Source of the DNA: a virus
Taxonomy: Duplodnaviria > Caudoviricetes
Length of the DNA: 64,000 nucleotides
Direction: 5' to 3' (one strand)
IMG/VR virus record: IMGVR_UViG_3300023119_000004
A program made the translations under genes and the position numbers. Below are positions 44,357 through 62,241 of this stretch, in pieces (position 1 is the stretch's first letter; each line of letters starts with the position of its first letter). Under the pieces are notes generated by a model. It saw only the letters and a program-made list of their open reading frames with translations, was not told the origin of the DNA and ran no database searches.

Positions 44357-44521
44357 TTATAAGTTGCCTTTGCAACCTAAATATTTCTTCCTTAACTAAC
44401 TGTTGCTTCTGAAACTTAACATTACGCTTTTGCATTTTAGTAAGTTCATTAATCTTTTCTTGAATCCTTTTTTCAAGAGCGTTTATTAAGTTCTGATCCA
44501 TACTATATTTAATACAATGTT

Positions 44522-44595
44522 TGGTGCCCAGTGACAGAATCGAACTGCCAATAGATGATTACAAATCAACTGTTATACCATTTAACTAACCGGGC
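44522..44595 (-). tRNA. tRNA-Thr, anticodon UGU, CCA encoded
   Basis: GCCCGGT/ACTGGGC acceptor, TTTGTAA anticodon loop, GGCAG-TTCGATT-CTGTC T-arm. Confidence 0.88.
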
Positions 44596-44954: not shown

Positions 44955-45215
44955 TCAATTCAACGTCCTCTTATTTTTAAGTTTATCTTCTTCTGGAATA
45001 TCCCATGCCATCTGTTCTTCAATAGCATAACGAGCACCTTCGATATAATCTCGATCTTCGTCGTCTAACGCACTCCAAAACTTACTTACTGTTTGAATGT
45101 GTTCTTCAACAACTTCAGGACGTTTTAAATGATAATTATCCTCCATCCACATTTGGAGAATATCCATACGTTGTTTAATTTTTTCTCTTACACTCAAATC
45201 AAAATCCTCGACCAT
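44955..45215 (-). CDS. Hypothetical protein
   Basis: Start set at ATG 45215 to limit overlap with the upstream gene. Confidence 0.55.
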   Translation of the reverse strand: MVEDFDLSVREKIKQRMDILQMWMEDNYHLKRPEVVEEHIQTVSKFWSALDDEDRDYIEGARYAIEEQMAWDIPEEDKLKNKRTLN

Positions 45216-45432
45216 TTGTGATCTTGTATTCCTGTGGTCCAGGTGTTGTAAACTCCATGCCCATTTTATTTCCGACATAAACTTTACCATTCCATTGCAT
45301 CTTGATTTGATTTTGCACCATGAATACTTCGACAAACTTTCCTTTTTCAAATCTGTCTACATCTGCTGTAATAGTCTTGTCATTATCTGTACAAGTTACT
45401 ACACACGTTTTATCATGTTCTGTTCTAATCAT
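45199..45432 (-). CDS. Hypothetical beta-rich protein
   Basis: 77 aa, AAGGAG RBS and early promoter upstream. Confidence 0.65.
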   Translation of the reverse strand: MIRTEHDKTCVVTCTDNDKTITADVDRFEKGKFVEVFMVQNQIKMQWNGKVYVGNKMGMEFTTPGPQEYKITNGRGF

Positions 45433-45433
45433 G

Positions 45434-45619
45434 TTATCTCCTTTTTAAATTATTATATTGTAAGTAGATCAAAAAGTCAACTATTAAAAAATTAAAAAAC
45501 AATCCTGTAGTAGTAAGCATCACTCCAAAAAGCATAGGGATAATAATTAGGAACAATCCTAGTTTAATAAGATAATCAAAGGCTAATTCAACCGGAACTG
45601 TCCAAAACAACCAAGTCAT
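45434..45619 (-). CDS. Small membrane protein
   Basis: 61 aa, hydrophobic; ATGA overlap with the upstream gene. Confidence 0.6.
   Translation of the reverse strand: MTWLFWTVPVELAFDYLIKLGLFLIIIPMLFGVMLTTTGLFFNFLIVDFLIYLQYNNLKRR
45452..45480 (-). promoter_or_regulatory. Sigma70-type early promoter TTGACT-17-TATAAT
   Basis: Consensus-like hexamers, inside the 3' end of 45434..45619. Confidence 0.8.
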
Positions 45620-46050
45620 ACAGTATACTCGAAATTATTTGATTCAGTGTTTTCACTGACCCATTCAGCACCATTGCGTAGATGAAACTTCATTGCCATT
45701 TCAGTCTTAGGACTAAGAGTAACATATCGTTTAACATTCTTAGTGTTCTTAATATGATCCGCGGCACGTAATACCATGTCACGCCCTGCACCTTTTGCAT
45801 AACTCCATACTGTATAGAATATTGCAATATCACCATCAACTGTACTAAACTCTGTTAGTTCTTGTTCATTAGTTGGAACTTTGTTTGCATAGGCAACACA
45901 AATAACCGCTTGTATTACACTATCTTCGTTTTCGAGTGCATAAACTTCTCTACCATTACTAATTCGATATGCTAACGGTAAGTGGCCTCGAACAGGATCG
46001 TCGGAACAGTGACCAATGTTCCAGTCATCTTGAATTTGAATTAATTCCAT
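45616..46050 (-). CDS. GNAT-like acetyltransferase fold protein
   Basis: FYTVWSYAKGAGR (acetyl-CoA loop-like), TLSP...AMKFHLRNGA. Confidence 0.55.
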   Translation of the reverse strand: MELIQIQDDWNIGHCSDDPVRGHLPLAYRISNGREVYALENEDSVIQAVICVAYANKVPTNEQELTEFSTVDGDIAIFYTVWSYAKGAGRDMVLRAADHIKNTKNVKRYVTLSPKTEMAMKFHLRNGAEWVSENTESNNFEYTV

Positions 46051-46694
46051 TATTTGATTCCTAATATCAGTTTGACCCTGCGTAAATCACTTTCTGGATT
46101 GCACACAGGAATTCTATTGTACTTTTCGTAGTACTTAACCATCAAAGCCATCTCATGATCTTTGACCTGACTGCTATGCATTGGCAAGTATGCTTGATAG
46201 CAATGATCGATATCTGCTTTATCAAAGTTTTCTTTAAATGCTGTACCACAACCGTAAGGCGAAAGCCTTTCGTTTCGTACTGTGCCTTTAAAGTCTGTAC
46301 GGCGACCGAGCATACAATTACGTGTTACTGCTCTACTTTCGCCAATATAAATTACACCTTCATGTAGGAAGTCTGCAGGACCAGTTGGAGGACCGTCCTT
46401 ATATAATCCGTAAACATAACAACCAGCATCTTTTTTATCAAAACCCCAATTAGCACTCCAAGATTCGTCGATGTGATGCCATTTAGTAAACTCTAAACTC
46501 CAAGGGTCAACAAGTGTCATTTCTTGGGTACTAAATGCATCTAGGCCACTAGTTGTGAAAACTTTCTTGAACGTATAACATAGTTCTTCAAGTTTATCTT
46601 CGTGTTGTGTAAAAATGGACTCTAGTACTTCTTGTTTGAGTCCATGTCCTCCACTAGCCTTTGCAATGTTTTCTGCGAGTATCTTCGCTTTCAT
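46050..46694 (-). CDS. GIY-YIG nuclease-like protein
   Basis: CYVY...IYIGES...R...HE...CN spacing. Confidence 0.55.
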   Translation of the reverse strand: MKAKILAENIAKASGGHGLKQEVLESIFTQHEDKLEELCYTFKKVFTTSGLDAFSTQEMTLVDPWSLEFTKWHHIDESWSANWGFDKKDAGCYVYGLYKDGPPTGPADFLHEGVIYIGESRAVTRNCMLGRRTDFKGTVRNERLSPYGCGTAFKENFDKADIDHCYQAYLPMHSSQVKDHEMALMVKYYEKYNRIPVCNPESDLRRVKLILGIK

Positions 46695-46702
46695 GTTACA
46701 CC

Positions 46703-46900
46703 TTACATCTTTGCTTCGCGTTCTTTACGAGCCTTGTTTGCTCTAGCAATACCACGCTTCTTGTCAAGTCTTTTTTGCTCACTTGGCTTAGTATAGTATT
46801 GACGTTCTTTAAGTTCAACTAGTAATCCGCTTTTTTTAATTTTACGTTTAAGTTGTCTTAATGCTTTTTCAACGTTATTATTTTTTACTATTACTTGCAT
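46703..46900 (-). CDS. rpsU: Ribosomal protein bS21 (copy 1)
   Basis: V.VKNNNVEKALRQLKRK...ELKERQYYTKPSE. Confidence 0.92.
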   Translation of the reverse strand: MQVIVKNNNVEKALRQLKRKIKKSGLLVELKERQYYTKPSEQKRLDKKRGIARANKARKEREAKM

Positions 46901-46916
46901 ACTCCTCCTTTCCGTG

Positions 46917-47138
46917 TTAATGGAGCGTTCTCATTGCTCCTTCATCATTTAAATCAATTCCAAAGTATTCTTCACAAATTGTAACGATACTTTCTGGAAC
47001 TAAATCTTCTTCTTTACCTGCTGGTATATACAAGCCTTTCAAATCTCCATCAGCACTAATAATTAGTGCCCAGTCATCATCTTCCATGGCTTCACCAAGT
47101 TCAAAATATTCTTGGTTGTCTTGCATTGTACACTCCAT
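46917..47138 (-). CDS. Acidic hypothetical protein
   Basis: 73-aa ORF, ATTAAATA late-like motif upstream. Confidence 0.55.
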   Translation of the reverse strand: MECTMQDNQEYFELGEAMEDDDWALIISADGDLKGLYIPAGKEEDLVPESIVTICEEYFGIDLNDEGAMRTLH

Positions 47139-47168
47139 AACTAAATTATATACTATTACTATTTAATG

Positions 47169-47963
47169 TCAACCTATTTTTACATAATTGATCATTGTTT
47201 CGGGGTATTTGGTAATAAAGTTTTTACCGTGGCCTTTTACTTTGCCTTTTATTTTGAACGTAGTATCTACTTTTGGCAGTTGCTTAGTTTGATCAAAGTT
47301 TTTAAAGAAACTGACAAGGTTACCATCAAGTGATCCATTTAATACATGGCAACCGAAACGTTCTACAAAACGAATTTCATTAAGTGTAAACATACCAAAC
47401 ACTTGTTCACCAATACGCCCAATGTGTTTACTTTCACTAAAGTCGTTTTTAATCTTTTTCTTTAGTTCTTTCTTTTCGAAACTATCAAAATATACTTTTG
47501 GAAGAACTGCTACAACACCAAAGTCGGAACGTTTCAAAGTACTTTTAGTAATAGATTCAAGTAGTGACTTCATAAAGTCGTTTAACGAATCAGCAATTAC
47601 GGCAAATGCGTTTTCTTTGTGCAAATACTCTACACTTTTACGAGCATTCTCACGGTCTTCATCAATTACTGTAATAGGCTGGAAGTCCGGAGGGTTCATA
47701 CCGTACGGTGCTAATTGGCATAACATTGATTCTTTATTAGAGAAAAGTGTAGGATTGTCTTCTGAAAACCTACGTGTATCTCTATAATAGCCACCGTTGT
47801 GTCGATGTGTTGCAAATGCAACAGACAATACTTCTAGAGTATCGTATTCTTTTTTCTTTGTATTCGCCACGGGTTTTACCTTGCCTTCGTTTCTAAGTTC
47901 AAATGCTAGTTCTTGTGTTTTGAACTCTTTCTTTGTCATATCGCCTATCATTAGAAGCCTCAT
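47169..47963 (-). CDS. Hypothetical protein with C-terminal OB-fold-like region
   Basis: SKHIGRIGEQ...IKGKVKGH...ETMINYVK; early promoter upstream. Confidence 0.55.
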   Translation of the reverse strand: MRLLMIGDMTKKEFKTQELAFELRNEGKVKPVANTKKKEYDTLEVLSVAFATHRHNGGYYRDTRRFSEDNPTLFSNKESMLCQLAPYGMNPPDFQPITVIDEDRENARKSVEYLHKENAFAVIADSLNDFMKSLLESITKSTLKRSDFGVVAVLPKVYFDSFEKKELKKKIKNDFSESKHIGRIGEQVFGMFTLNEIRFVERFGCHVLNGSLDGNLVSFFKNFDQTKQLPKVDTTFKIKGKVKGHGKNFITKYPETMINYVKIG

Positions 47964-47983
47964 TACCTAAGTGTTATAGTGTT

Positions 47984-48012
47984 ATAATAACACAAAGTAT
48001 TATATTTGTCAA
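47984..48012 (-). promoter_or_regulatory. Sigma70-type early promoter TTGACA-17-TATTAT
   Basis: Hexamers upstream of 47169..47963. Confidence 0.8.
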
Positions 48013-48023
48013 CCAAAAAAATA

Positions 48024-48590
48024 TTAAAATATGTGATCTGCAATACCTAAATCAACCATTTGTTTGGCTGTGTAATATTGATCACTTGGGTTCTTAATAA
48101 ATTTGTTACGTACTTCTTGGATTGTCATTCCGCTGGCATCTTTTAATATTTGTAAACAACGCATTTCACAGTTTTGGTTTTCTTTCATCTGTGCTTTCAT
48201 GTCGTGTACTTTGGCTTCCATTGAGTCGGAATGTTGATGATTCATTGAACCTGCATTTTTACCAACATAACGCTCACCCTGTTTGCCACTAGCAAAAATT
48301 AAAAAGCCAGCACTCATAACAGCACCAATACCGATAGTGCTAATGTTATGATAACTGTTCTTCATTACATCAATCAAAGCAAATGCTTCGTATAGGTCTC
48401 CGCCATATGTGTTAATGTAAAGTTTAAGGGTACGTTTTGGTTTCTTGTTTAAGTTTGCAGAAAGAATCCATTTGATTGCTTCACCTACATTTTCACTAGC
48501 AATGTCGCCGTGCAGATAATGGATATCACTGTCCAACAGACTTTTATCAATGGCGTCACTTGCAGTCCAATTATCGTATTTTGTAGGCAT
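48024..48590 (-). CDS. clpP: ClpP-family serine protease
   Basis: YINTYGG, GAVMSAG (Ser), MNHQ (His), DQYYTA (Asp), GIADHI. Confidence 0.85.
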   Translation of the reverse strand: MPTKYDNWTASDAIDKSLLDSDIHYLHGDIASENVGEAIKWILSANLNKKPKRTLKLYINTYGGDLYEAFALIDVMKNSYHNISTIGIGAVMSAGFLIFASGKQGERYVGKNAGSMNHQHSDSMEAKVHDMKAQMKENQNCEMRCLQILKDASGMTIQEVRNKFIKNPSDQYYTAKQMVDLGIADHIF

Positions 48591-48616
48591 ATTTTATTCT
48601 ATTAGTTATGTACGTA

Positions 48617-48624
48617 TATTTATT
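48617..48624 (-). promoter_or_regulatory. T4-late-like promoter AATAAATA
   Basis: Upstream of clpP. Confidence 0.6.
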
Positions 48625-49096
48625 CGATTGCCCAGGCTTTGTGACCAAGATCGTTTTGCTCGGCCCATCTAACAAATAGGCCTATTTCACGACCCATTGC
48701 TTCAATTTCCCATGGATAATCCCAGTAACTCATTTTGTCACGGTTGTATTCTACTCCGTCAAATTTAACATATTGACGTCCTTTCATCAGATCCTTCATT
48801 TGACCTGTTGCGAACTGTTTGACGTGTACCATTTCGTGACACACTGATTCTAGTGCTTTACGTAGTGGTTGTGATTTGTCAATTTCTATAGTAAATTCCT
48901 TAGGACGAGTATTATCATCTTCCCACATACAAGTACCGCACTCGTTGTGTTTTTCATACATATCTTTTGTGTATCGTACTGTAACTTCTAGTGAGTTTGT
49001 CATTCGCTTAGACATAAGCATATATGCACAGAAATGAACTAGGCTTTCTGTGTATTTCTTTTGACTGCGATTAGCATTTACTACGGTAACTTGCAC
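48620..49096 (-). CDS. HEXXH zinc metallopeptidase-like protein
   Basis: CHEMVHVKQ, YWDYPWEIEA. Confidence 0.8.
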   Translation of the reverse strand: MQVTVVNANRSQKKYTESLVHFCAYMLMSKRMTNSLEVTVRYTKDMYEKHNECGTCMWEDDNTRPKEFTIEIDKSQPLRKALESVCHEMVHVKQFATGQMKDLMKGRQYVKFDGVEYNRDKMSYWDYPWEIEAMGREIGLFVRWAEQNDLGHKAWAIE

Positions 49097-49098
49097 TA

Positions 49099-49293
49099 TT
49101 ACTTTTCCTCTTGTTTAGTGTATGCACTTCTGTCTTGTGAAACCAGATAACAATCGGCTTGTATCTGTGCAATTAGATTATCAATTTCTAAATTTGAACC
49201 CTTGACTGCACCATATTTTAGTTCTCTTAATCTGTCGGCATCTTTTTTAATACCATCAATCTTGTCGCACATTTGGCTAATTTTATGAAGCAT
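49099..49293 (-). CDS. Hypothetical helical protein
   Basis: 64 aa, GGAGG RBS, early promoter upstream. Confidence 0.65.
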   Translation of the reverse strand: MLHKISQMCDKIDGIKKDADRLRELKYGAVKGSNLEIDNLIAQIQADCYLVSQDRSAYTKQEEK

Positions 49294-49315
49294 TGATCCC
49301 TCCTTATTTTTAAAC

Positions 49316-49351
49316 TATAAATAGTTTAACAGAACGAAAGGCAAAAGTCAA
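49316..49351. promoter_or_regulatory. Overlapping divergent promoters: late TATAAATA (+, 49316-49323) and early TTGACT-17-TAAACT (-, 49323-49351)
   Basis: Both motifs read directly in the 49294-49351 intergenic region. Confidence 0.7.
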
Positions 49352-49714
49352 GTGGAAATTTTCCTATTTTTAATGATAAAACACGCTATTGTTGACCTTG
49401 GTTTTCAACCATTTGGTCTCGGTAGTTCCAAAAAATATTATTTTGGTTGGCCCGCTCACAAACAACATTATGTCCCACACGGACTCTTAACCGTGCTTGT
49501 AATGGCGTCTTACACGCACATAAACGTCGCTGTAGCGTTGGGAATACTAGATTATATACTACACTGGCATACAGACTTTACTAAGACTAAAATACGTAAT
49601 TATTTTGAATGGACTAGCAAAGACAGACAGTTTTGGATTTTGAATGCTGTAGATCAAATACTACACTTTACTGGATACTATATAATTGTGTTGATTGCTA
49701 CTTCACAAATTTAA
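49352..49714 (+). CDS. DUF3307-like His-rich membrane protein
   Basis: KHAIVD, H...H, HWHTD, DQILH motifs in TM helices. Confidence 0.75.
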   Translation: MEIFLFLMIKHAIVDLGFQPFGLGSSKKYYFGWPAHKQHYVPHGLLTVLVMASYTHINVAVALGILDYILHWHTDFTKTKIRNYFEWTSKDRQFWILNAVDQILHFTGYYIIVLIATSQI

Positions 49715-51065
49715 ACGCAAACTTACCGCCAATACGTGAACTATAATAATTCTTAGAACCATCTAGTGCAACAGTACCTTGGAAGTTTGGAGGGTAAACA
49801 GCCTGGAAGCCAGTTACACGAATGTCGTCACCCTTCTTACCAACTTTGGTATAAAGTTGTATAATACTTGCTGTGTTTAATAATGAAATTGCTTCTGTAG
49901 AAAATTTTGGATTTTCGTTTACCTTGAGTGCAACCTTTTTAGCCAACGCACTTGTGATAGCATATCCGGTATTAAACCCTTGAACAGTCATATCAAAGTT
50001 AACACCTTCAACCATTTTAGTTGCTTCGTCACTCATGTTTTCAAAGTCTTGTTTACCTTGCTTCATATACTCGTCTGCTTCTTTTCTTAGTGCAGGAGTT
50101 GATAACTGAAACTTTTCGCCTAAATCAAAAGGTGCTTCTTTTGCACTCTTAGTTGCAATAGTTGTAACTATGTCTGCAACAAACTTTGTATTTGACATTA
50201 GTTCGGCATTGTCTTTGTTCTTTTGTAAAGAGTCATACAAGTTCTTTGCACTAGCAGATGCACCAGCGCCACCTTTAGAACTAATACCAATCTCTTTGCC
50301 GTCTGGAGCAAGGAACACGCTATCGACTAAGTTGTAGTTCATTGCCATAGGCCAAAAGATATTAAGGTCTTTCCAGTTAGCGCCACCGGCTAACTCTTGT
50401 CTTGCCTGTTCGGCGTCACCTTGTACAAGGCCACCCATCATAGCAACCGGACCCATAATTTCACCAAAGTAATCTCTAATAGATTCTAGTTTTTCAATCT
50501 GCCCTGGGAACTCAGGCATTTGTCCATTAGATGCTGATTCAAGTGCAGTTACAAGAACTTCACCTTCCTGGCCAGCATTAGTTCTTACAGTTTGAATAAT
50601 CTGTTCTGGACCTTTAAATTTGTTTTGAGATTTAATTAGTGTTTGTGGATCTAAACCAGTATCAATCTTTAACGCACCCTTGGTACCTAATTTCCAACCT
50701 GATGGAATTTGACTGTTACCCCAAACACCCATTAGGTCTGCACCTACTTGTCTAAGATATCTACCCCAGTAAATGTCTTTACCATCGCTAGTTCTAATCT
50801 GTGCAATACCAAATGCTAGTGTTCCTGCGTTAGCAGTATTAACCCATTCAATTTTAGCATTGTTATTTTTTTCAAACTCTGCAATGGCTTCGTCACGTTC
50901 TTCTGCTGTAGCAAATTTACCACCTTGTGAAAGATCTGGAATTGCAATCGCTTGTACGAACTCTGCCTTTTCGCCATTGTCGTGGATATATGGCTCTCCA
51001 GGTTTACGCCCGAAAATGCCTTTAGACTCTATTACTTGTGTTTGTTTAAATTCGAAAAACCTCAT
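49698..51065 (-). CDS. Hypothetical late protein (possible internal head protein)
   Basis: MRFFEF N-terminus; CATAAATA late motif at 51074-51081. Confidence 0.55.
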   Translation of the reverse strand: MRFFEFKQTQVIESKGIFGRKPGEPYIHDNGEKAEFVQAIAIPDLSQGGKFATAEERDEAIAEFEKNNNAKIEWVNTANAGTLAFGIAQIRTSDGKDIYWGRYLRQVGADLMGVWGNSQIPSGWKLGTKGALKIDTGLDPQTLIKSQNKFKGPEQIIQTVRTNAGQEGEVLVTALESASNGQMPEFPGQIEKLESIRDYFGEIMGPVAMMGGLVQGDAEQARQELAGGANWKDLNIFWPMAMNYNLVDSVFLAPDGKEIGISSKGGAGASASAKNLYDSLQKNKDNAELMSNTKFVADIVTTIATKSAKEAPFDLGEKFQLSTPALRKEADEYMKQGKQDFENMSDEATKMVEGVNFDMTVQGFNTGYAITSALAKKVALKVNENPKFSTEAISLLNTASIIQLYTKVGKKGDDIRVTGFQAVYPPNFQGTVALDGSKNYYSSRIGGKFAFKFVK

Positions 51066-51076
51066 AGCACTAGTAT

Positions 51077-51772
51077 TTATGCTATTTTTGGAAATAATGC
51101 GTTAGTGCAGAATTCGTCAACATCTGCTTCATTAAGTCCTAATGACTTCATAACTCTAGGTGTATGTGGATTTTGTTGCTGGTTATGGCAGTAGTAGTTT
51201 TGAGCACCTGCTGTAATATCTACACTAGCATTGCCTGTATACTCAGGAACACTATCAAACCATACACGCAGGTTTTCTAAAGCAAGATCTACAATAGCAG
51301 TTGCTTCTTCTTCTGTGCGAACATTACCTGCGGCAACCATTCCTGGTGAAAAGATGTTCTGTGCCCATTCGGGTAGTTCACGTTGTTTACTAGGAATAAA
51401 ATCTTTAACAGCATCTAAGTACCATTCTACAAGAGGATGTTCTTCACCGCCTGAACTTGCTGAAAAATCATGAAATGCACCTGTCATTTTATTCTTACCT
51501 GCAATAACATCAAAGCCGTAAATAGGACCATCATTTGATAACACAGGAAAACAACATACGTGCATCATCCACAGTCCGTGCGAGTCTCTTGCGTCTACAA
51601 CATCAATGTGTGCTCTGCGTACATGATCATTTGCCCATACTCTGTTGATCCAACCGTTCTCAGGCTGATTAAATTTGTTTAATCCTTTTTCTTCTATTTC
51701 AGTGGCTTTCTCATCAAAGATGTTTAATATTTCATTTTGGCATTCAATTAGTTTATCCCAAATGACACTCAT
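51077..51772 (-). CDS. pcyX: Ferredoxin-dependent bilin reductase, PcyX type
   Basis: NRVW, RRAHID, LWMMHVC.FP, GFDVIAG, AFHDFS, YCHNQQQNPHT; start at ATG 51772 gives an ATGA overlap with the halogenase stop. Confidence 0.88.
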   Translation of the reverse strand: MSVIWDKLIECQNEILNIFDEKATEIEEKGLNKFNQPENGWINRVWANDHVRRAHIDVVDARDSHGLWMMHVCCFPVLSNDGPIYGFDVIAGKNKMTGAFHDFSASSGGEEHPLVEWYLDAVKDFIPSKQRELPEWAQNIFSPGMVAAGNVRTEEEATAIVDLALENLRVWFDSVPEYTGNASVDITAGAQNYYCHNQQQNPHTPRVMKSLGLNEADVDEFCTNALFPKIA

Positions 51773-53289
51773 GATCTGTTTCCCCAATCTCTATTATACA
51801 TACCAGGTGTTGTCCAATCAACATCGTCTTTGTTCATCTTTTCTAAAAGTTCCATGGCTTTGTCTTTTTCTAATCCTGGTGATGCTGTTTTAATTCCTGT
51901 TGTGTTAAGCCATAGTTTCCAATTCATCTCAGCAAAGATTTCTGTATTACGGGGGAAAAACTGATAGTCATCGTCCCACATAACTGTAGGTGTATAGTTA
52001 TGTTTAAAGTTTGTTGCAATCTCTGTAAGTTTATCTGTTTCCTTAAAGTTTTTATAAACGTGTTCCCAAAACTTACCTTTACGTGGATTATTAAAATAAT
52101 GTAGTGCTACAAAGTTCATAGTATCTTCATAGACTGCTGTCATATCTTCGTTAAACTTTAATCTATCTTCTTCAGTATAACTTAGTTTTTCTAAAACTTT
52201 TAGGCCACTAGCACCAATTGTAAGTAATGCAAGTCCTGTTGATTCTAACGGTTCAATAAATCCACTAGCAAGTCCTACACTAAAACAGTTGCCTCTCCAG
52301 TTGTTTGCATTATATTCTGGCTTGAAAGGAACATGATTAAACTGTCCTGTTCTTAGTCTGTGTTCACCCCAATGCTGTACAAAGAAATCTTCTGCTTCTT
52401 GTTTAGTGGTAAGTTCACTGTTGTAACATAGTCCACTACCAATACGATCTTTAACAGGTGTTTTCCAAATCCAACCTAGGTCACACGCCTGTGCAGTAAC
52501 GTATGGAAGTTGTACTTCATCTTCTGTTTCGTAATCTATTTGACTTGCTACTGCGGCATTAGTAAACAGCATATGACTTCTGTCAATCCATTTACTGTCG
52601 GGCAATGCATTTGAAAGTAAACGTTTAAAGCCAGTACAGTCTACAAAAAAATCTGCTGTAACTTTTGTACCGTCATCTAATGTTACATATTCAATAACAC
52701 CATCAGTAACCTTTGGAGCATCAATGTGTTTTTGAATATGTGTTAGTCTTGGATACTTCTTATTAAGATAATCAGATAAGAAGTTTGCTAGTTTAACAGC
52801 ATCTAAATGATATCCTACATGAGCAGTACCACCGCAAGGTGTTGTGTTATTTGGAATCTTTTTATCTACAACAGAAACTTTATGCCAAGCAATATATTTT
52901 TCTAATTCAACCTCATTAATGCCGCCGTCACGAGCAAGGTCAATGCTATCAAGTGTTCCGTGTTCTGTATGTGTTACAGGAAAAAAGAATGGTTGCCAAA
53001 TGTTAATGCCGTCGCCCTTCCAGTTTGGAAAGTAAGTCCCTGTTTTAATAGTTGCGTCACAAGCCTTTGTCCATAGTTCTCTAGGAATATTACAATCGTC
53101 TAAAAAATGATCAAACCCTAAAATAGTTGCTTCACCTACGCCAACAATAGGAACATTAGGACTTTCAATAAGTGTGATTTGTGTTTCGGGTAAGTTTGAT
53201 AATGCATAAGCGGCCGTAAGCCAACCAGCACTTCCTCCACCTACAATACAAATGGACCTAGCACGGCTACGACCTACTACTTCAGTCAT
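51769..53289 (-). CDS. Flavin-dependent halogenase (PrnA/tryptophan halogenase family)
   Basis: GGGSAGW, VGVGEAT, ATIKTG (catalytic Lys), GWIWKTP, GFIEPLESTG. Confidence 0.9.
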   Translation of the reverse strand: MTEVVGRSRARSICIVGGGSAGWLTAAYALSNLPETQITLIESPNVPIVGVGEATILGFDHFLDDCNIPRELWTKACDATIKTGTYFPNWKGDGINIWQPFFFPVTHTEHGTLDSIDLARDGGINEVELEKYIAWHKVSVVDKKIPNNTTPCGGTAHVGYHLDAVKLANFLSDYLNKKYPRLTHIQKHIDAPKVTDGVIEYVTLDDGTKVTADFFVDCTGFKRLLSNALPDSKWIDRSHMLFTNAAVASQIDYETEDEVQLPYVTAQACDLGWIWKTPVKDRIGSGLCYNSELTTKQEAEDFFVQHWGEHRLRTGQFNHVPFKPEYNANNWRGNCFSVGLASGFIEPLESTGLALLTIGASGLKVLEKLSYTEEDRLKFNEDMTAVYEDTMNFVALHYFNNPRKGKFWEHVYKNFKETDKLTEIATNFKHNYTPTVMWDDDYQFFPRNTEIFAEMNWKLWLNTTGIKTASPGLEKDKAMELLEKMNKDDVDWTTPGMYNRDWGNRS

Positions 53290-53821
53290 TATCGACCTCC
53301 ATCATTTCTTTGAATGTTTCTGTAGCAAAGTCAAAACATATCTTTGCTTCTTCAGCCATATCATCGTTCAACTGTTCTCTTATGGCTGTTTTCAGTTCGT
53401 CAACAGGAGCATCAAATTGATACAATCTTCCTTCTCCTGGAATTTTCTTTTTAATCATTTGTCCACCGCTTAGGTCACCCATGTGTCTAACATATACGTG
53501 AGCCATGACTTTATCTGGATCTCCCATAATTGTTCTCATATGTTCTAGATACTTTTCTGTTACTTTTAAAGTTTTAGGCATTTCTTGTTTAGGCCATAAC
53601 TCTTTAAAATCATCTAGTATGCTCGGGGAACGTCTAATAGCAGGATGAGGCAATAAGCCATGTGTCATTGCTATTGCTTCTAAAATATTGTATTGAATAT
53701 GTTGATTATATAAAAATGTTGCATAAAGTTCTTTGTCAATTTTACCTGACATTAAAACTTTTACAAATGCTTGGCGTTCTGCGTTCTTATGGTGTTCCCA
53801 CGTTGCTTCTTTTAAGTTCAT
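53282..53821 (-). CDS. hemO: Heme oxygenase (phage HemO/Ho1 type)
   Basis: LKEATWEHH..AE, AHVYVRHMGDLSGGQ, EEAKICFDF. Confidence 0.92.
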   Translation of the reverse strand: MNLKEATWEHHKNAERQAFVKVLMSGKIDKELYATFLYNQHIQYNILEAIAMTHGLLPHPAIRRSPSILDDFKELWPKQEMPKTLKVTEKYLEHMRTIMGDPDKVMAHVYVRHMGDLSGGQMIKKKIPGEGRLYQFDAPVDELKTAIREQLNDDMAEEAKICFDFATETFKEMMEVDND

Positions 53822-54126
53822 TCTTTTTCCACTTTGATCTGCAATGGGAATCCGTTTGCTCTGCTCAAAGTGGTTGCTTCTACGCTTTTTTGTTCTGCAA
53901 TTTCAAATGCGTAAACGCCAACTACTGCACTTCCATCTTCATGAATTTGTAGAGTTAGATTTTTTGCTGTGTCAACAGAATGCTTAAAAGTAGTTACTAG
54001 CACATCGATCACGAAATCCATTGGTGTTTGGTCATCATTAATAAAAATAACTGAGTACCTTTCGGGCTCAGCAATTTTTATCTTAATCTTTTCGTCAATT
54101 TGTACATCCATATTATTACTTATCAT
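53818..54126 (-). CDS. clpS: ClpS N-degron adaptor
   Basis: YSVIFINDDQTPMDFV, IHEDG, AEQK, GFPL; start moved to ATG 54126 (GGAG RBS). Confidence 0.9.
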   Translation of the reverse strand: MISNNMDVQIDEKIKIKIAEPERYSVIFINDDQTPMDFVIDVLVTTFKHSVDTAKNLTLQIHEDGSAVVGVYAFEIAEQKSVEATTLSRANGFPLQIKVEKE

Positions 54127-54154
54127 TGTATGATCTCCTACCAGTAAATAATGA

Positions 54155-54176
54155 TAGTGGGGATTGCTCCCCACTA
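54155..54176 (-). terminator. Perfect 9-bp hairpin with GCAA tetraloop after hsp20 (weak U-tract)
   Basis: TAGTGGGGA-loop-TCCCCACTA. Confidence 0.6.
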
Positions 54177-54193
54177 CCGACCTTTTAAGTGTA

Positions 54194-54643
54194 TTACTTA
54201 ACTTCGATTGATCTTGCTTTTTTAGCCTCTGGAATAATTCTTTCCAAAGCAATTCTAAGCAAGCCATCTTTTAGTTCAGCACCTTGTACTACTACATCGT
54301 CTGCAATAGTAAATGATTTAGTAAAGTGCCTTTTACTAATACCTCTGTATTGTACACCATCCGCTTCATCGTCAGTTTTTGACTCTTGGATTGATTTAAC
54401 AGTTACCACACCGTCTTCGTATGATACGTCAATATCCTTTTTGCCAAAACCAGCAAGTGCTAATTCAATATCGTAAGTATAGTCGCCTGTTTTTACAATA
54501 TTGTATGGCGGATAGTTAGTGTTAAAAGTAGGTGCATTGAAGAAGTCGTCTTCAATCATTCTTTCGAATCTATCAAAGATAGGATCGAACCCTACTGATA
54601 CGGGTCTTAGTTGGTTAAAGATTGATAGTGATTTGTTTGTCAT
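54194..54643 (-). CDS. hsp20: Small heat-shock protein Hsp20 (IbpA-like)
   Basis: SVGFD, YPPYNI, LALAGF, YRGISKRHF, A.LKDGLL.I. Confidence 0.95.
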   Translation of the reverse strand: MTNKSLSIFNQLRPVSVGFDPIFDRFERMIEDDFFNAPTFNTNYPPYNIVKTGDYTYDIELALAGFGKKDIDVSYEDGVVTVKSIQESKTDDEADGVQYRGISKRHFTKSFTIADDVVVQGAELKDGLLRIALERIIPEAKKARSIEVK

Positions 54644-54713
54644 TTGTTTTCTCCTTATTAAGCAAGTTGTTTGTCATGTAAGACCTATCAAGCATCTTAC
54701 AATCTTATTTATC
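54644..54713 (-). promoter_or_regulatory. hsp20 leader: late promoter GATAAATA, covarying hairpin, ROSE-like SD-occluding hairpin
   Basis: UGUAAGA-UGCUUGAUAGG-UCUUACA then CUUGCUU-AAU-AAGGAG; same architecture as the dnaK leader. Confidence 0.7.
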
Positions 54714-56597
54714 TACCTCTTCAAACTCGGCGTCTACAACGTTTTCATCTTTCTTAGATGTTGTTTCTGCTTCTTCTGAAGTGTTAGATTCTTGTTGTGC
54801 CTTGTAAACTGCTTCACCTAACTTCATTGCCACTTGTGATAGTGCTTCTGTTTTAGATTTAATATCTTCAACATTGTCACCTTTAAGTGCTTCTTGTAAG
54901 TTAGTCTTAGCATCTTCAATTGATGTTTTAATATCTTCCGATACTTTATCACCGTGTTCTTTTAACTGTGATTCAACTGAGTGTACAAGACCGTCAGCAT
55001 TGTTTCTAGCATCTACGGCTTCTCTCTTTTGTTTGTCAGCCTCTTTATTTGCTTCTGCATCTTTGACCATTTGTTCAATTTCTGCATCACTCAAACCGCC
55101 GTCTGATTTAATAGAGATTGTTTGTTCTTTGCCTGTGCCTTTATCTTTTGCTGATACGTTAACAATACCGTTTGCGTCAATATCAAATGTTACTTCAATT
55201 TGAGGCATACCTTTTGGTGCTGGTGCAATACCTTCTAGATTAAAGAGACCAAGTTCTTTATTATCTACAGCCATTTCACGCTCACCTTGTAATACCTTAA
55301 TAGTAACTGCTGATTGATTATCTTCCGCAGTACTAAACACTTGTGATTGTTTAGTTGGGATTGTTGTATTCTTTTCAATTAGTTTAGTAGTAACACCGCC
55401 TAGTGTTTCAATACCCAATGAAAGCGGAGTAACGTCAAGTAGCAATACATCTTTAACATCACCACTTAATACACCTGCTTGAATTGCGGCACCTAGTGCT
55501 ACAACTTCATCTGGGTTAACACCTTTGTTTGGATCTTTACCAAAGAATGTTTTAACAGTTTCTTGTACCTTAGGCATACGTGTCATACCACCTACTAGTA
55601 CAACGTCTGTAATATCACCTTTGCTTACACCTGCGTCTTTAAGAGCAGTTTCACAAGGTTTAATTGAACGTTGGATTAGTTCGTCTACAAGACTTTCAAA
55701 CTTAGCACGAGTAATTTTTAAATTCAAGTGCTTAGGTCCAGAAGCATCTGCTGTAATAAATGGTAGACTGATGTCAGTTTGTGTTGTGCTTGACAATTCA
55801 ATCTTTGTTTTTTCAGCCGCTTCACGTACACGTTGTAGTGCTAGTTTGTCTGTTGAAATATCTACACCAGACTCTTTCTTAAACTCGTCTACAATGTATT
55901 GTGTAAGAACAGCATCAAAGTCTTCACCACCTAATGCTGTGTCACCGTTTGTTGAAAGTACTTCAAATACTCCGTCACCGAGGTCAAGTACTGATACGTC
56001 AAATGTACCACCACCTAAGTCATACACAACAATCTTGCCTGACTCTTTTTTATCTAGTCCGTAAGCAAGTGCCGCCGCTGTTGGTTCATTTACAATACGT
56101 AAAACTTCTAGTCCTGCAATTTTACCTGCATCTTTAGTTGCTTGACGTTGTGCATCGTTAAAGTATGCTGGTACTGTAATAACTGCTTGTGTTACAGTTG
56201 AGCCTGTATACTTTTCAGCAGTTTCTTTCATCTTGGTTAATACTTCTGCTGATACTTGTTGTGGGGAAAGTTCTTTACCTTTTGTTTCTACCCACGCATC
56301 ACCGTTCTTTGCTTCTACAATTTTGTATGGAAGCGTTTTAGCATCACGTGTGATTTCTTTTGATTTAAACTTACGTCCAATTAGACGCTTTGACGCATAG
56401 ATTGTGTTCTCTGCGTTAGTAACTGCTTGACGCTTTGCTGATACACCTACAAGTGTACCATCGTCAGTATAGGCTACAATACTAGGTGTAGTTCTATTAC
56501 CTTCTACGTTTTCAATTACTTGGGGATCTTTGCCGCTTAGTATAGCAACACATGAATTTGTGGTACCCAAATCGATACCAATAACTTTATTAGCCAT
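54705..56597 (-). CDS. dnaK: Chaperone DnaK (Hsp70)
   Basis: [44 protein letters not shown]; start at ATG 56597 after AAGGAG. Confidence 0.98.
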
Positions 56598-56668
56598 TTT
56601 TTTCTCCTTATTAAGCAAGTTTTAATTACAAAACCTATTCAGCATTTTGTAACATATAAGTATTTATC
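56598..56668 (-). promoter_or_regulatory. dnaK leader: late promoter GATAAATA, covarying hairpin, ROSE-like SD-occluding hairpin
   Basis: UUACAAAA-UGCUGAAUAGG-UUUUGUAA then CUUGCUU-AAU-AAGGAG. Confidence 0.7.
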
Positions 56669-56718
56669 ACTTATATAGTATATATAGTGTTAAATCGACT
56701 ATTTTTCAAGTCTAAATG

Positions 56719-57279
56719 TTACCGATTTATAAAATAAAACTGATTGATACTATATCTACCACTTCCTATACACCTAGATACACTATGTTGTAAAAAACTT
56801 GGAAATAATATAGTTGTATTATTTTTTAATGTAGGCTTATATCCAAAGTCTGTAAACTCTAAATCTCCACCTTCAAATGCTTTTGGTTCTTTCCATAAAA
56901 CTGTCACGGCAGATAATGTGCCATGATCAGCATGATGATCATATACTGCTCCGTTTCCATAATAGTTTACCTGTGTTACATCATGGTTAGTGTAAGGTAA
57001 GTATCCTGCAAACGGATTGTCTTTTAGTTGCTCTTGCAAATAAAATAGTTTCCTATTAAAGTTCAAGACGTAACTTTTTTCTCTGTTATCTTTATAGTGT
57101 GTATCCATGTGAATAGCACACATTTTATCATTTGCTCTAGGGTCGCCAGTTTCTGCTGACGGTCTAAAGTATGCGTCTAGTGAATTAATCTCTACAAGGA
57201 TTTCTTTTAGTTCCCACGGTTCGTAAAAATCGTAGATGATACTATGATGAAAAGGTTCATGTAGATTCTTAACAAGCAC
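56719..57279 (-). CDS. 2OG-Fe(II) oxygenase
   Basis: HHAD, FEGGDL, FPSFLQHSV, RYSI. Confidence 0.85.
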   Translation of the reverse strand: MLVKNLHEPFHHSIIYDFYEPWELKEILVEINSLDAYFRPSAETGDPRANDKMCAIHMDTHYKDNREKSYVLNFNRKLFYLQEQLKDNPFAGYLPYTNHDVTQVNYYGNGAVYDHHADHGTLSAVTVLWKEPKAFEGGDLEFTDFGYKPTLKNNTTILFPSFLQHSVSRCIGSGRYSINQFYFINR

Positions 57280-58430
57280 TAGTTACCTATTGTGTTTTTT
57301 TCGTATACAGTATTGTGTGTTTGTGTACAACGTACAAATGTAGCACATCTACTTAGATGTTTAAGTCTTATTGCGCCAGCATAAGTACAAGCAGAACGCA
57401 ACCCACCCAAGATATCTTGAACAGTAGTAGCCACTGCTCCTCGGTAAGGCACAAGAATTTCTCTTCCTTCACTGCTTCTATACTCCTTAAGGCCTCCAAA
57501 GTGTTTGTCGTTCGCGGCCTTCGAACTCATTCCGTAGAATTGTACAAACTTTTTTTCTTCAATTTTATTTTGTATACCACCTTGATCAAAAGTAACTTCA
57601 TCTGTAGTATACATTTTAGTAATTACTTCTCCACCACCTTCATCGTGCCCGGCGAGCATTCCTCCAAGCATAACAAAATCTGCTCCTGCGGCAAAAGCCT
57701 TTGCAACATCTCCAGGCGATACGCATCCTCCATCGGCAATAATGTGTCCACCGAGACCGTGTGCGGCGTCGGCACATTCAATGACTGCGGAGAGTTGTGG
57801 GAATCCAACCCCAGTTTGAATCCTAGTAGTACACACGCTCCCGGGACCAATACCCACCTTAACAATATCCGCTCCACTTAAAATTAACTCCTCTGTCATT
57901 TCTCCGGTAACTACATTACCTGCAATAATTACAATATGTGGATATAAACGTCTAAACTCTGCAACAAAGTCACGGAAACGATTTGAATATCCGTTAGCAA
58001 CATCGATACAAACATAACGTAACTTATCACCTGTTTGTTCATATACTTGACGAAACTTTTCATGATCGTGATCAGTAATACCAATGCTCATTGCTACATA
58101 CTGGGTACGTTCATCGTATTCACTATCAAAGTAACATACTAGATCATTTACACTATATGTCTTTTTAAGACAGGTAAACATTTTTACTTCAGCAAGTTTG
58201 TCTGCAACTTCAAATGTTCCTACACCATCCATGTTAGCGGCCATAATAGGAATACCCCGCCAGTGTCTATGATCAGGTCGGATTTGCTCCATGCTCATAT
58301 CTTGTGGCTTCCAGTTACGCCAAGTAAATCCTCTTTCAAGATCTACTTCTTTACGACTTCCTAAAGTTGAACGTTTAGGACGTAGTAATACATCTTTGTA
58401 GTCGAGTTTAATGTCTTGGTCGATTCGCAC
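57279..58430 (-). CDS. guaC: GMP reductase
   Basis: KLDYKDVLLRPKRSTL, ANMDGVG, CIDVANGYS, KVGIGPGSVCTTR, EGR; GTG start 58430 after GGAG. Confidence 0.93.
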   Translation of the reverse strand: MRIDQDIKLDYKDVLLRPKRSTLGSRKEVDLERGFTWRNWKPQDMSMEQIRPDHRHWRGIPIMAANMDGVGTFEVADKLAEVKMFTCLKKTYSVNDLVCYFDSEYDERTQYVAMSIGITDHDHEKFRQVYEQTGDKLRYVCIDVANGYSNRFRDFVAEFRRLYPHIVIIAGNVVTGEMTEELILSGADIVKVGIGPGSVCTTRIQTGVGFPQLSAVIECADAAHGLGGHIIADGGCVSPGDVAKAFAAGADFVMLGGMLAGHDEGGGEVITKMYTTDEVTFDQGGIQNKIEEKKFVQFYGMSSKAANDKHFGGLKEYRSSEGREILVPYRGAVATTVQDILGGLRSACTYAGAIRLKHLSRCATFVRCTQTHNTVYEKNTIGN

Positions 58431-59028
58431 TTTTAACTCCGTAGTTAAACGATACTGCAATACGTTCGTTGTTGCTTTTGTTTTGTGTTACTTCATGTTT
58501 TGCCCAGCCAGGAAATATTGCTACCATGCCAGGTTTAGGCGGATATGTTGCCATTGTGCTTGTGATAGTATTATACTGACTTAGATTATCGGGAATATAA
58601 TACTGTGCATCATCAGGACGATAAAATCTTAAATCACCCATATTCTCATCTGGTACATCAATGTAGAATACTCCACTTAGTAATGCATCTTGATGATTGT
58701 GTAAAGTGTGATATGCTCCTGGTCCATTAATGTTAATCCAAAAGTTTTGAAATTCAACTTCTGGCAATCCGCAGACTTTAGATACATACGCCATAGCCTC
58801 ATCTAATTCTGTTACAAATTTTCTAAGTACTGGAACGTACTGTGGATCTACTAGATCAACATTTTCAATACTACGACTGTGCCACCCACCTTGATTGCTG
58901 TTACCATGCAAGTCTGGTTCTTTAGTTCTCCAGTCATGTGCAATATGTTTCATAGCATTTCTGTCTACCTTTTCTAAATAGCCGGCAAACACAAATTGCG
59001 GAAACCATAAGTCTGCTTTAAATTCCAT
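58408..59028 (-). CDS. 2OG-Fe(II) oxygenase (TIGR02466-like)
   Basis: GGWHS, FWININ, HNH, LSGVFY, HEV, RIAVSFN. Confidence 0.85.
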   Translation of the reverse strand: MEFKADLWFPQFVFAGYLEKVDRNAMKHIAHDWRTKEPDLHGNSNQGGWHSRSIENVDLVDPQYVPVLRKFVTELDEAMAYVSKVCGLPEVEFQNFWININGPGAYHTLHNHQDALLSGVFYIDVPDENMGDLRFYRPDDAQYYIPDNLSQYNTITSTMATYPPKPGMVAIFPGWAKHEVTQNKSNNERIAVSFNYGVKSANRPRH

Positions 59029-59273
59029 TAATAACCAAATTCCCTTTCTTTACGGCGAACTTCTTTAAGCCAACGGGCACGACCTGCCGCTTTTGCTTTC
59101 TTACGTCTTTCACTAGGTTTAATATAGTGTTGACGTTCACGTAGTTCTTGGAGTACTCCATCTTGTGAAACTTTTCTTTTGAATGTTCGTAGTGCTTTAT
59201 TAAAGTCGCCATTTTTTACTTCGACGGTTAACCCTTTGAAATGGTTATCGTCTTTCTTCCGTTGTCTTGACAA
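59028..59273 (-). CDS. rpsU: Ribosomal protein bS21 (copy 2, N-terminally extended)
   Basis: VEVKNGDFNKALRTFKRKV...ELRERQHYIKPSERRK. Confidence 0.9.
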   Translation of the reverse strand: MSRQRKKDDNHFKGLTVEVKNGDFNKALRTFKRKVSQDGVLQELRERQHYIKPSERRKKAKAAGRARWLKEVRRKEREFGY

Positions 59274-59649
59274 AATACTGTTCTCCTTCTGCTATCTGTC
59301 GAAGATCGTAGACTCTATTATTACTAATTAAATTATATGGTCTTTCGTTGTTACTTGTCAAGTAAAAAGTTTTAGATAATGGAAGAAGATATCCAATAAG
59401 CCAAACACAACTACTAGGCACATTATCTACATCAATAATAATGTAATCTACGTAATTAGAAACCTCAATAACCCAATCCTGTTCTTCTTTGCTATCAAAA
59501 AGGTACAGATTAATATCCGCTTTAATATTCTTTGCAACTTCATTAAACTGTTCTTTTATATTGTCGCTAGGATTAACCAAAAGAAAACTTAAATTATTAT
59601 TCATAAGTTTATCTGGAGGTGTGATCAGATTAATAATAGGTTCACTCAT
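59245..59649 (-). CDS. Hypothetical protein
   Basis: 134-aa ORF starting ITPPD... Confidence 0.6.
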   Translation of the reverse strand: MSEPIINLITPPDKLMNNNLSFLLVNPSDNIKEQFNEVAKNIKADINLYLFDSKEEQDWVIEVSNYVDYIIIDVDNVPSSCVWLIGYLLPLSKTFYLTSNNERPYNLISNNRVYDLRQIAEGEQYFVKTTEERR

Positions 59650-59739
59650 AACAAAATTACTTATTTAATTATTTGTGGATCTTGTGCCAAACTGAATTAT
59701 CAGTTTGTTCGGAATTTTGAACGTATGTGTCTGGTTCAA

Positions 59740-61440
59740 TTACTGTTGTGAAGTTGGGTCTTGTTCTTCCGGCTGTGTTTTCTTGCGGATTTGTTTGTTT
59801 TCTACTTTGGTTATGTACGAGGTTGCGTTCGCTCTTTTTTTTTGAAACTCTGGTGTTAACTCTTCTGCGTAAAAAATTCTATTCTTAGTATCTGGAATAT
59901 CACTTTCTTCTGTTTCTTTTTCTGCTTCTTTGTTTGCGGCGTCAACCCATTCATTCCATTTGTCTAAGTCTGATGTCATATTAACTTCAGGTTCAAGTTC
60001 TTTTTGTTCTTCTTCAAAGTTAGGTGGTTCGTTAACTGCTATCTTTTCAGCACGAATTTTTTCATACTCGTCAAAGTTTACTTCTTTATTGTCATCATCT
60101 TGTACTTCAACTTGTTCCATTCGCTGATCATGTTCAGTTGTGTTGGAAGTATCATCCTCTGGTACCACAGTTCCGTCATCTGCATCTGCATCATAACTAG
60201 GGTCTTGTAAATCTCTATCATCGTCATTATCCTTGTTTGGACCTTCTGGGTCTGACTTTGGGGGCAAACTACCTCCTTTGTCCTCACGGTACCAATTGAA
60301 TGTGTACTGTGATGCAATTAGAAGCAATACTGCTAATGGGTCAAACACAAAGATAATAATAATGATTACCCAACGTACTGCCGCTTCTAATAATGTTTGA
60401 TCTGCTTGTTCACCGTAGATAAATTCTGCAATATACTTAATAGGTCCTACTTCTGCTTCTAGTTTACGATATTCGCCTTCAATTTTATATTTCTGTTCTA
60501 CTAGTGTATCTATTTCTGTATTAGCATTTTTAATTCTTAATGTTTGTGTATCTATTTCTGCGTCAATGCTATCTGCTTTATCTGTATTACCTAACTGCTT
60601 ACGTAATCTGTCAATAAGAGCATTTGATTGTTTAACTTGATCTTCAGCAGTCTTACGTAGACGTTTAATTTCTTCAGCGGCCGCTTTAGCCTGTGGATTA
60701 TTTGTTGCTTCTTCAATCTTTTTAATTAGTGCTAAACGTTCTTTCTGTTTTTCGTCTTGCCAGTCGCCAATTTTATCTGCTGTCTTTTTACCAAAGATGC
60801 CATCTGCACTAGCACCAATCATTTGTTGTGCTTTTTTAGTTTCGCCGTTGTCAATATAACCTTGTAGTGTTTCAATTTCGGCATCTATTTTAGCAAGTTC
60901 ACTACGCCATAATGATGCTTGGCTATCAATTATAGCCTGTTGTTCATCGATGGCAGGTTGAATTCTTTTATAAGCATTGTCGATACGTTCTTGTTCTTTG
61001 TCAATTTGTGATTGTATGTTAGCGTCAGAACCTGTACCGCTTGATTCTAGTTTTTTAATTTGATTTTCTGCACGAACAATAATATCTTCGTTTCGTTTAA
61101 TTTCGTTCTCAATACGTTCTACTTGTGCAATACTTTCTGTACCTGCACTAGTTTGTTCAATATGTGCTTTAGATAGGAATCCAAAAATACCCATACTTGT
61201 AATAAACATTAATACGAGTACTGCTATAGATAGATACGTCTTAAGCCACCATGCGGCTCTTTCCCAGTTTCGGTGTAACCATACTGCTGTAACTAGTTTA
61301 CCTACTTCTAAAGATACACCCATTACAATAATGGGAATTGCGGCCGCGGCAAATATAGCCACTAAGCCTGCGACACTATAATATATTGCTACTGCTGAAA
61401 TTGTCAGAGCAGAAAAGAATGTTAAAAAACCTAATACCAT
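59740..61440 (-). CDS. Multi-TM, long coiled-coil membrane protein with a PG-binding-like motif
   Basis: Three N-terminal TMs, coiled coil, QQMIGASADGIFGKKT, AEVGPIKY, C-terminal TM, acidic tail; start set at 61440. Confidence 0.65.
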   Translation of the reverse strand: MVLGFLTFFSALTISAVAIYYSVAGLVAIFAAAAIPIIVMGVSLEVGKLVTAVWLHRNWERAAWWLKTYLSIAVLVLMFITSMGIFGFLSKAHIEQTSAGTESIAQVERIENEIKRNEDIIVRAENQIKKLESSGTGSDANIQSQIDKEQERIDNAYKRIQPAIDEQQAIIDSQASLWRSELAKIDAEIETLQGYIDNGETKKAQQMIGASADGIFGKKTADKIGDWQDEKQKERLALIKKIEEATNNPQAKAAAEEIKRLRKTAEDQVKQSNALIDRLRKQLGNTDKADSIDAEIDTQTLRIKNANTEIDTLVEQKYKIEGEYRKLEAEVGPIKYIAEFIYGEQADQTLLEAAVRWVIIIIIFVFDPLAVLLLIASQYTFNWYREDKGGSLPPKSDPEGPNKDNDDDRDLQDPSYDADADDGTVVPEDDTSNTTEHDQRMEQVEVQDDDNKEVNFDEYEKIRAEKIAVNEPPNFEEEQKELEPEVNMTSDLDKWNEWVDAANKEAEKETEESDIPDTKNRIFYAEELTPEFQKKRANATSYITKVENKQIRKKTQPEEQDPTSQQ

Positions 61441-61463
61441 GCTGTTCCTTTTTATATACATTA

Positions 61464-61471
61464 TATTTATC
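61464..61471 (-). promoter_or_regulatory. T4-late-like promoter GATAAATA
   Basis: Upstream of 59740..61440. Confidence 0.65.
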
Positions 61472-62240: not shown

Positions 62241-62241
62241 A

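Follow-up and report, generated by a model that had tools for sequence, protein, structure and literature searches.

The stretch of viral DNA analyzed here, a window of 64,000 nucleotides from the tailed-phage record IMGVR_UViG_3300023119_000004 (Duplodnaviria; Caudoviricetes), codes for two different versions of the ribosomal protein bS21, termed copy A and copy B, and this pair of genes is a trait of a clade of phages, not a quirk of one assembly. Among the ribosomal proteins encoded by viruses, phage bS21 is the most common, and in the ribosome bS21 is located on the platform, beside the anti-Shine-Dalgarno tail of the 16S rRNA. The explanation favored here, to which roughly an even chance is given, is that the two copies are non-redundant isoforms, made early in infection, which would replace the exchangeable bS21 of the host and thereby create two kinds of phage-modified ribosome. 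A conserved bS21 pair in one phage clade appears to be unreported so far: no report of two bS21 genes in one phage was found in the literature, a tblastn search of 50,697 deposited phage records (E <= 1) gave a single bS21 locus per matching record (44 records, 44 places), and a hidden Markov model (HMM) scan of five complete cultured phage genomes, HTVC008M and four others, found one bS21 in each.

Both genes are confirmed, at the level of sequence, as genuine and divergent members of the bS21 family. Against Pfam family PF01165 (curated cut-off 27) copy A scores 53.9 bits and copy B 68.7, and against TIGR00030 (curated cut-off 28.95) the scores are 53.7 and 65.5. A preliminary description of this DNA, prepared from the letters and their open reading frames (ORFs), had proposed two divergent bS21 paralogs about 12 kb apart, sharing the pattern ALRxxKRK...ExxERQxYxKPSE. 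This description holds: both proteins contain the pattern and pass the two family models, they are 52% identical across 64 residues, and their genes lie 12.1 kb apart. Lysine or arginine accounts for about one third of the residues in each. Among sequences of the Protein Data Bank (PDB), copy A matched 35 distinct entries (best E 1e-7) and copy B 34 (best E 2e-10), all of them bS21, bS21m or bS21c. The AlphaFold2 (AF2) models predict two helices in either protein, with a predicted local distance difference test score (pLDDT) of 87 for copy A and 77 for copy B, and of about 52 in the N-terminal extension of the latter; in Foldseek searches with both models the top matches were nearly all bS21 or bS21m chains, at weak E-values (7e-3 to 5e-2). 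The source record is an IMG/VR contig of 77,990 bases, rated 21% complete by CheckV, and exactly two bS21 matches occur in the whole of it; contigs of 312-338 kb also carry these proteins.

The two copies represent distinct types. Copy A is compact, devoid of both an N-terminal extension and an aromatic C-terminus. Copy B begins with a basic extension of 14 residues (five lysines or arginines plus His and Phe), as the preliminary description had noted, and also carries Trp68 and ends in Gly-Tyr. Because the conserved Gly14-Leu15 precede every alternative start codon, the extension must be translated. Across 55 sequences of the A type and 120 of the B type, about 22 columns are common to all, and about 20 are conserved inside each type and different between the types. 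The extension of B-type proteins has a median length of 13 residues (range 3-25), and 95 of the 120 end in an aromatic residue; A-type proteins have no extension, no aromatic C-terminal residue and no Trp68. This tryptophan is invariant in the B type apart from copy B of six two-copy genomes (G001, G002, G413, G415, G419 and G422; loci L046, L047 and L173-L185), in which it is lost and the ELRERQ core is altered. Published work places the N-terminal helix of bS21 over the anti-Shine-Dalgarno sequence, and its C-terminal part has been reported to touch the 3' tail of the 16S rRNA (PMC9976891). Since both termini are reported to point towards the mRNA and the 3' tail of the 16S rRNA, the differences between A and B would fall where initiation could be affected. 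The roughly 20 type-specific positions, together with the differences at both termini, thus argue for two kinds of ribosome with different initiation properties, and not for a double dose of one. It is possible, albeit doubtful, that the virus goes further and splits the ribosomes of its host into two phage-programmed pools with different start-site preferences, a viral counterpart of the paralog-specialized ribosomes that have been proposed for Francisella.

Conservation of the pair was assessed by searching IMG/VR with copies A and B and with the versions of a related genome (G002), and then scanning the whole records with the HMMs. Both genes were found in ten contigs (G000, G001, G002, G413-G417, G419 and G422), on the same strand and 10.7-12.8 kb apart, which represent seven distinct lineages by sequence. 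Every contig that spans both sites (10 of 10) carries both genes, and the three A-bearing contigs with a single match stop short of the expected site of copy B. The relatives of copy A on two-copy contigs are 77-82% identical to it, and the slot of copy B is syntenic and conserved throughout the six relatives examined. In G003, G005 and G006 copy B is found in that same slot and copy A is missing, though the contigs span the corresponding region; since these B-only relatives keep the slot of B, copy B is the older gene and copy A was gained in one subclade. Between G001 and G002, dN/dS (the ratio of nonsynonymous to synonymous divergence) is 0.093 for copy A and for copy B alike, at a dS of 0.63, which argues that neither copy is decaying.

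In the trees, a check that the preliminary description had suggested, A and B form separate clades with sequences of cultured phages and of cells in between; as to how the pair arose, the approximately unbiased (AU) test, on about 69 usable columns, rejected neither monophyly of A and B (p = 0.535) nor a nesting of A with the B copies of two-copy genomes, as expected from duplication within the subclade (p = 0.249, difference in log-likelihood 22.9). Duplication and transfer are thus not significantly separated. The nearest cultured relative of copy A is the bS21 of HTVC008M (61% identity over 51 residues), and that of copy B is found in PA5oct (56% over 48). The main split (95/76) puts copy A on the side of HTVC008M and Mosig, within an unresolved polytomy, and AU tests do not reject alternative placements. 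Transfer from a pelagimyophage-like phage is the simpler reading, because copy A resembles the bS21 of pelagimyophages. Under the favored explanation, copy B represents the ancestral gene of the jumbo-phage lineage, of the huge-phage type with its basic N-terminal extension and aromatic C-terminus, and copy A is compact, resembles the pelagimyophage form, and was gained by the ancestor of one subclade, to be inherited together with copy B since then. Such co-inheritance is indicated by the trees of A and B, which agree in their sister pairs. A long-stemmed clade (stem 0.38, support 100/98) unites the B copies of six of the seven two-copy lineages, the copy B of G000 being placed among ordinary B sequences. 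This pattern suggests that, in these six lineages, copy B underwent a burst of change after the arrival of copy A, followed by strong purifying selection; such rapid change of the older copy in most lineages would be consistent with two ribosome pools.

The affinities of the two copies also bear on an explanation by host range, in which the two isoforms are matched to the 30S subunits of different host species and the pair permits takeover in more than one host. Phage bS21 is often host-like and has been used for host prediction (PMC7162821; PMC6375957), and here the nearest cultured relatives of copy A infect SAR11 whereas copy B groups with the bS21 genes of phages of gammaproteobacteria. 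Neither copy, however, is near any cellular bS21, the best real cellular match to copy A being at most 52% identical among 401 sampled Pseudomonadota genomes (a tally that includes the unpublished G395, with a 38% match, on which no claim depends), and this explanation is regarded as distinctly unlikely. A scan of named genomes gave seven loci, the best of them in a Porticoccaceae metagenome-assembled genome (MAG). It was considered as a cellular donor and rejected: this closest "cellular" match (L052, contig NZEU01000035.1, 118.7 kb) is a mis-binned T4-like phage, which carries genes for CobS, HNH, bS21, Hsp20, the gp45 clamp and the gp44 clamp loader. Two bS21 genes each are seen in this MAG and in a Coraliomargarita MAG, whose 16-kb contig with a B-type bS21 (L053, PAAN01000001.1) is probably phage DNA as well. 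Since neither copy is close to cellular bS21, both types appear to have long evolved within phages.

The predicted control of the two genes is much alike (Table 1). Each lies behind a sigma-70 promoter of perfect consensus. In the case of copy B, the -10 hexamer ends 58 nt before the start codon, and the promoter is kept at 12/12 and at the same N18 spacing in 12 of 14 related genomes, despite the diverging coding region in which it is embedded. In every other two-copy lineage the promoter of the unit that holds copy A has its counterpart at the same position, with TTGACA and a near-consensus -10 (10-11/12). Perfect TTGACA-N16-18-TATAAT sites number four in the 64 kb, against 0.12 expected, all of them on the coding strand; of the remaining two, one stands before the clamp-loader region and one before an endonuclease gene, both typical early functions. 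Neither bS21 gene has the strict T4 late motif TATAAATA nearby, and a search for ATAAATA found none directly upstream of either gene, the nearest being 1.5-2.2 kb upstream of each. This heptamer is rarer in the window than expected (16 found, 28.7 expected), and its occurrences immediately precede gene starts, including those of dnaK, hsp20 and clpP; its minus-strand sites (61464, 56661, 54706, 51074, 48617, 38313 and others) behave as late promoters interleaved with early ones of the sigma-70 type. Copies A and B would thus share one regulatory layout, comprising an early-type promoter of their own and possible late read-through. Several late-type motifs and a terminator-like hairpin separate the two genes, and together with the conserved promoters these agree, as a prediction, with the earlier assignment of the pair to different operons.

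Table 1. Positions of the two bS21 genes and of the associated features in the window
Feature	Position	Strand	Remarks
bS21 copy A	46703..46900	minus	65 aa, ATG start; matches PF01165 and TIGR00030
Extended Shine-Dalgarno of copy A, AAGGAGGAG	46902..46910	minus	1 nt before ATG; -11.6 kcal/mol, rank 5 of 81
Small acidic ORF	46917..47138	minus	73 aa, or 69 aa from the second ATG; directly upstream of copy A
Predicted sigma-70 promoter of the small ORF-copy A unit, TTGACA-N16-TATAAT	47145..47172	minus	12/12 match
Late-type ATAAATA	48617..48623	minus	before clpP, 1.7 kb upstream of copy A
Terminator-like hairpin, 11-bp stem	54153..54178	minus	after hsp20, between the bS21 units; best-scoring such site in the scan
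2OG-Fe(II) oxygenase	58408..59028	minus	PF13759, 85.7 bits; ATG overlaps the stop of copy B (TAATG)
bS21 copy B	59028..59273	minus	81 aa, TTG start; matches PF01165 and TIGR00030
Shine-Dalgarno of copy B, AAGGAG	59283..59288	minus	9 nt before TTG; -8.8 kcal/mol, rank 14 of 81 genes
Predicted sigma-70 promoter of copy B, TTGACA-N18-TATAAT	59332..59361	minus	12/12 match; inside the 3' end of the upstream ORF
Late-type ATAAATA	61464..61470	minus	before the membrane-protein gene, 2.2 kb upstream of copy B

Translation signals are likewise conserved in both genes. Copy A retains AGGAGG or AGGAGA in all lineages and starts with ATG, or with GTG in G415. For copy B, the combination of a strong Shine-Dalgarno site with a weak start codon recurs, namely TTG in seven lineages and apparently ATC in G415; an ATG start of copy B occurs solely in the single-copy genomes G003 and G005. 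Most genes of the phage use a Shine-Dalgarno site, and those of the bS21 genes are strong without being unique. Autoregulation of the Bacteroidota rpsU type (McNutt et al. 2023), which is marked by a uniquely strong Shine-Dalgarno site, was considered and set aside, as the two sites rank fifth (A) and fourteenth (B) among 81 genes. Under the favored explanation, each bS21 gene would be transcribed soon after infection by the sigma-70 RNA polymerase of the host from its own strong promoter, both mRNAs would be translated from their strong Shine-Dalgarno sites, and the two proteins would enter the host 30S subunit by displacing its loosely bound, exchangeable bS21, in the manner of the HTVC008M protein.

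The same arrangement speaks to a temporal division of labour, in which one copy would serve early and the other late, and which the preliminary description had put forward as use at different infection stages. The expression of phage bS21 has indeed been tied to late replication in other phages by Chen et al. 2022 (PMC9723584), each gene has a late-type motif at a distance of 1.5-2.2 kb upstream, and the outputs of the copies could differ, given the weak TTG start of B versus the ATG of A. Yet the conserved sigma-70 consensus promoters stand directly upstream of both, the late motif does so in neither, and no sequence feature separates the timing of A from that of B. The preliminary description had itself counted two copies being routine in the clade with identical timing against its reading, and the pair is present on all ten contigs in which both sites are covered. 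The promoters lend no support to staging, which is given a low probability.

Several observations weigh against the two-isoform explanation as preferred here. No second class of mRNA, for which one of the isoforms could show a preference, was found in the window: the Shine-Dalgarno strength of genes behind late motifs is no different (p = 0.54), TAAATA-N5-ATG is not enriched (four found, 1.98 expected), and the leaders of copies A and B are unstructured (z = -0.54 each). A tuning of ribosomes for different mRNA classes, which the preliminary description had also suggested, is possible but gains no support from the window. The promoter class is predicted from the consensus alone, and late read-through from an upstream ATAAATA into either bS21 gene is possible. 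The count of two copies covers 78 kb of a genome of about 300-370 kb, in which a third copy is possible. Strong purifying selection on both copies, finally, is also compatible with a benefit of dosage. Dosage or robustness would have the copies do the same job, by supplying more bS21 or a backup (for instance, if the host degrades or blocks one form), their divergence reflecting different origins. The identical regulatory design and dN/dS of the two, the absence of a distinct mRNA class in the window and the placement of both genes among those for proteases and chaperones would all suit this account. On the other hand, about 20 positions have a different fixed residue in each type, consistent differences at both termini are seen throughout a set of more than 170 sequences, the pair is retained in all lineages despite saturated synonymous divergence, and the burst in copy B of six of the seven two-copy lineages, with its subsequent strong constraint, suggests a shift in function. 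Dosage is considered unlikely, though it carries more weight than host range or timing.

A role away from the ribosome, whereby one copy, as a small and basic protein, would bind a phage RNA or become a partner in a ribonucleoprotein (RNP), is the least probable of the explanations weighed. In its favor, bS21 has been reported as a component of the OLE RNP (PMC12054373); it is opposed by the roughly 22 shared bS21 core residues that both copies retain, by their scoring as equivalogs, and by the lack of an RNA element adjoining either gene. An Rfam scan found only a tRNA and a sub-threshold ROSE_3 match before dnaK, and no RNA element beside either bS21 gene. That match (56592-56651, minus strand) overlaps the dnaK start, reaches 32.3 bits where the gathering score is 43 (E = 0.0025), and lies just downstream of the late-type ATAAATA at 56661-56667; the "ROSE-like" leader before dnaK is thus no more than a sub-threshold candidate.

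The phage itself, an uncultured giant phage of marine origin, is T4-like, with a gp44-type clamp loader, baseplate and fiber proteins of the T4 type and a DNA ligase. Both bS21 genes lie inside one long minus-strand array that is rich in proteostasis functions. In the order of transcription, its upstream part codes for a membrane coiled-coil protein, a 134-aa ORF, bS21-B, a 2-oxoglutarate (2OG)-Fe(II) oxygenase, a GMP-reductase-like protein, a second 2OG oxygenase and DnaK; Hsp20, ClpS, a heme oxygenase, a halogenase, a bilin reductase and several ORFs follow, and after these come ClpP, two ORFs, bS21-A and a 214-aa ORF. The 2OG-Fe(II) oxygenase adjoins copy B in G001, G002 and G004 as well, and does not do so in G003. 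The GMP-reductase-like gene beside copy B displays the same pattern as copy B itself, with 50% identity to G001/G002 and 73-81% to the B-only relatives. Searches of PHROGs and Pfam assigned no function to the ORFs flanking either copy. Among these, the small acidic ORF, probably co-transcribed with copy A, has no match to a Pfam or PHROG family, and its identity is 54% in G001/G002 and 37% in the B-only genomes G005/G006. At its start (47126-47172, minus strand), the ATG at 47138 comes 6 nt after TATAAT, so that the mRNA could begin on its own start codon and be leaderless; the real start could instead be the second ATG, at 47126, which has GGAG before it. The 214-aa ORF directly after copy A (46050-46694, minus strand), also devoid of a Pfam or PHROG match, has no homolog at that place in G001 or G002 and is a predicted insertion peculiar to this genome. 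Two phage genes, for tRNA-Arg(GCG) (41698-41774) and tRNA-Thr(TGT) (44522-44595), both on the minus strand, are located a few kb beyond the copy A unit in the downstream direction.

The company kept by bS21 recurs in other phages. The gene order is CobS, bS21, Hsp20 and 2OG oxygenase in HTVC008M; ClpX, bS21, Hsp20 and ClpS in PA5oct; ClpX, bS21 and ClpS in SCTP-2; and IF-3, bS21 and a ClpS-like gene in a Vibrio jumbo phage. Phage bS21 is thus repeatedly found beside proteostasis genes (Hsp20, ClpS, ClpX, DnaK, ClpP) in unrelated large phages, namely HTVC008M, PA5oct, SCTP-2, the L052 phage and the present one (window positions 44500-62500; loci L088-L091).

A clade in which two isoforms are kept under selection offers a built-in comparison for the role of bS21 in infection. 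Should the isoforms differ on ribosomes, this would be direct evidence that viral bS21 tunes the translation of mRNAs and is not a spare part, and the idea of ribosomes specialized by paralogs would apply to viruses as well as to bacteria. These phages are abundant, as judged from the occurrence of the A-type protein on hundreds of marine metagenome contigs.

The pair combines traits that are known separately from other systems. In the pelagimyophages bS21 is a core gene (PMC7029224), and that of HTVC008M has been found to incorporate into ribosomes (Mizuno et al. 2019, PMC6375957). Copy A resembles the latter in being compact and residing in a T4-like phage, and in both phages bS21 is found among Hsp20 and 2OG-oxygenase genes; HTVC008M, however, has one bS21, whereas here a second, different type coexists with the first and is conserved alongside it. 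Copy B alone shares the basic, aromatic-rich N-terminal extension of the bS21 of huge phages, where such basic extensions have been proposed to bind RNA (Al-Shayeb et al. 2020, PMC7162821); in the family of copy B it measures 11-21 residues. Like its counterparts in PA5oct and SCTP-2, copy B is accompanied by Hsp20 and ClpS genes. In the huge phages and PA5oct, by contrast, the extended type is the only one, and bS21 of the PA5oct type stands behind clpX, while copy B heads a predicted sigma-70 unit and is followed by oxygenase, GMP-reductase-like and DnaK genes. The bS21 phages of freshwater Bacteroidota (Chen et al. 2022, PMC9723584) are likewise large, with clades that keep the gene and a proposed takeover of the ribosome, yet theirs is a single copy, located among structural genes and expressed late, in contrast to the two copies seen here behind early-type sigma-70 promoters among proteostasis genes. 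A parallel to the pair as such may be drawn from bacteria. In Francisella tularensis the paralogs bS21-1, bS21-2 and bS21-3 yield heterogeneous ribosomes (PMC9578407), and other bacteria with such paralogs have been listed (PMC9976891). As in the present phage, several divergent bS21 genes are kept in one genome, and the same hypothesis applies, that substitution in the 30S subunit biases the choice of mRNA. The paralogs described here, known from sequence alone, are viral, and the ribosome on which they would act is a foreign one, already equipped with its own bS21.

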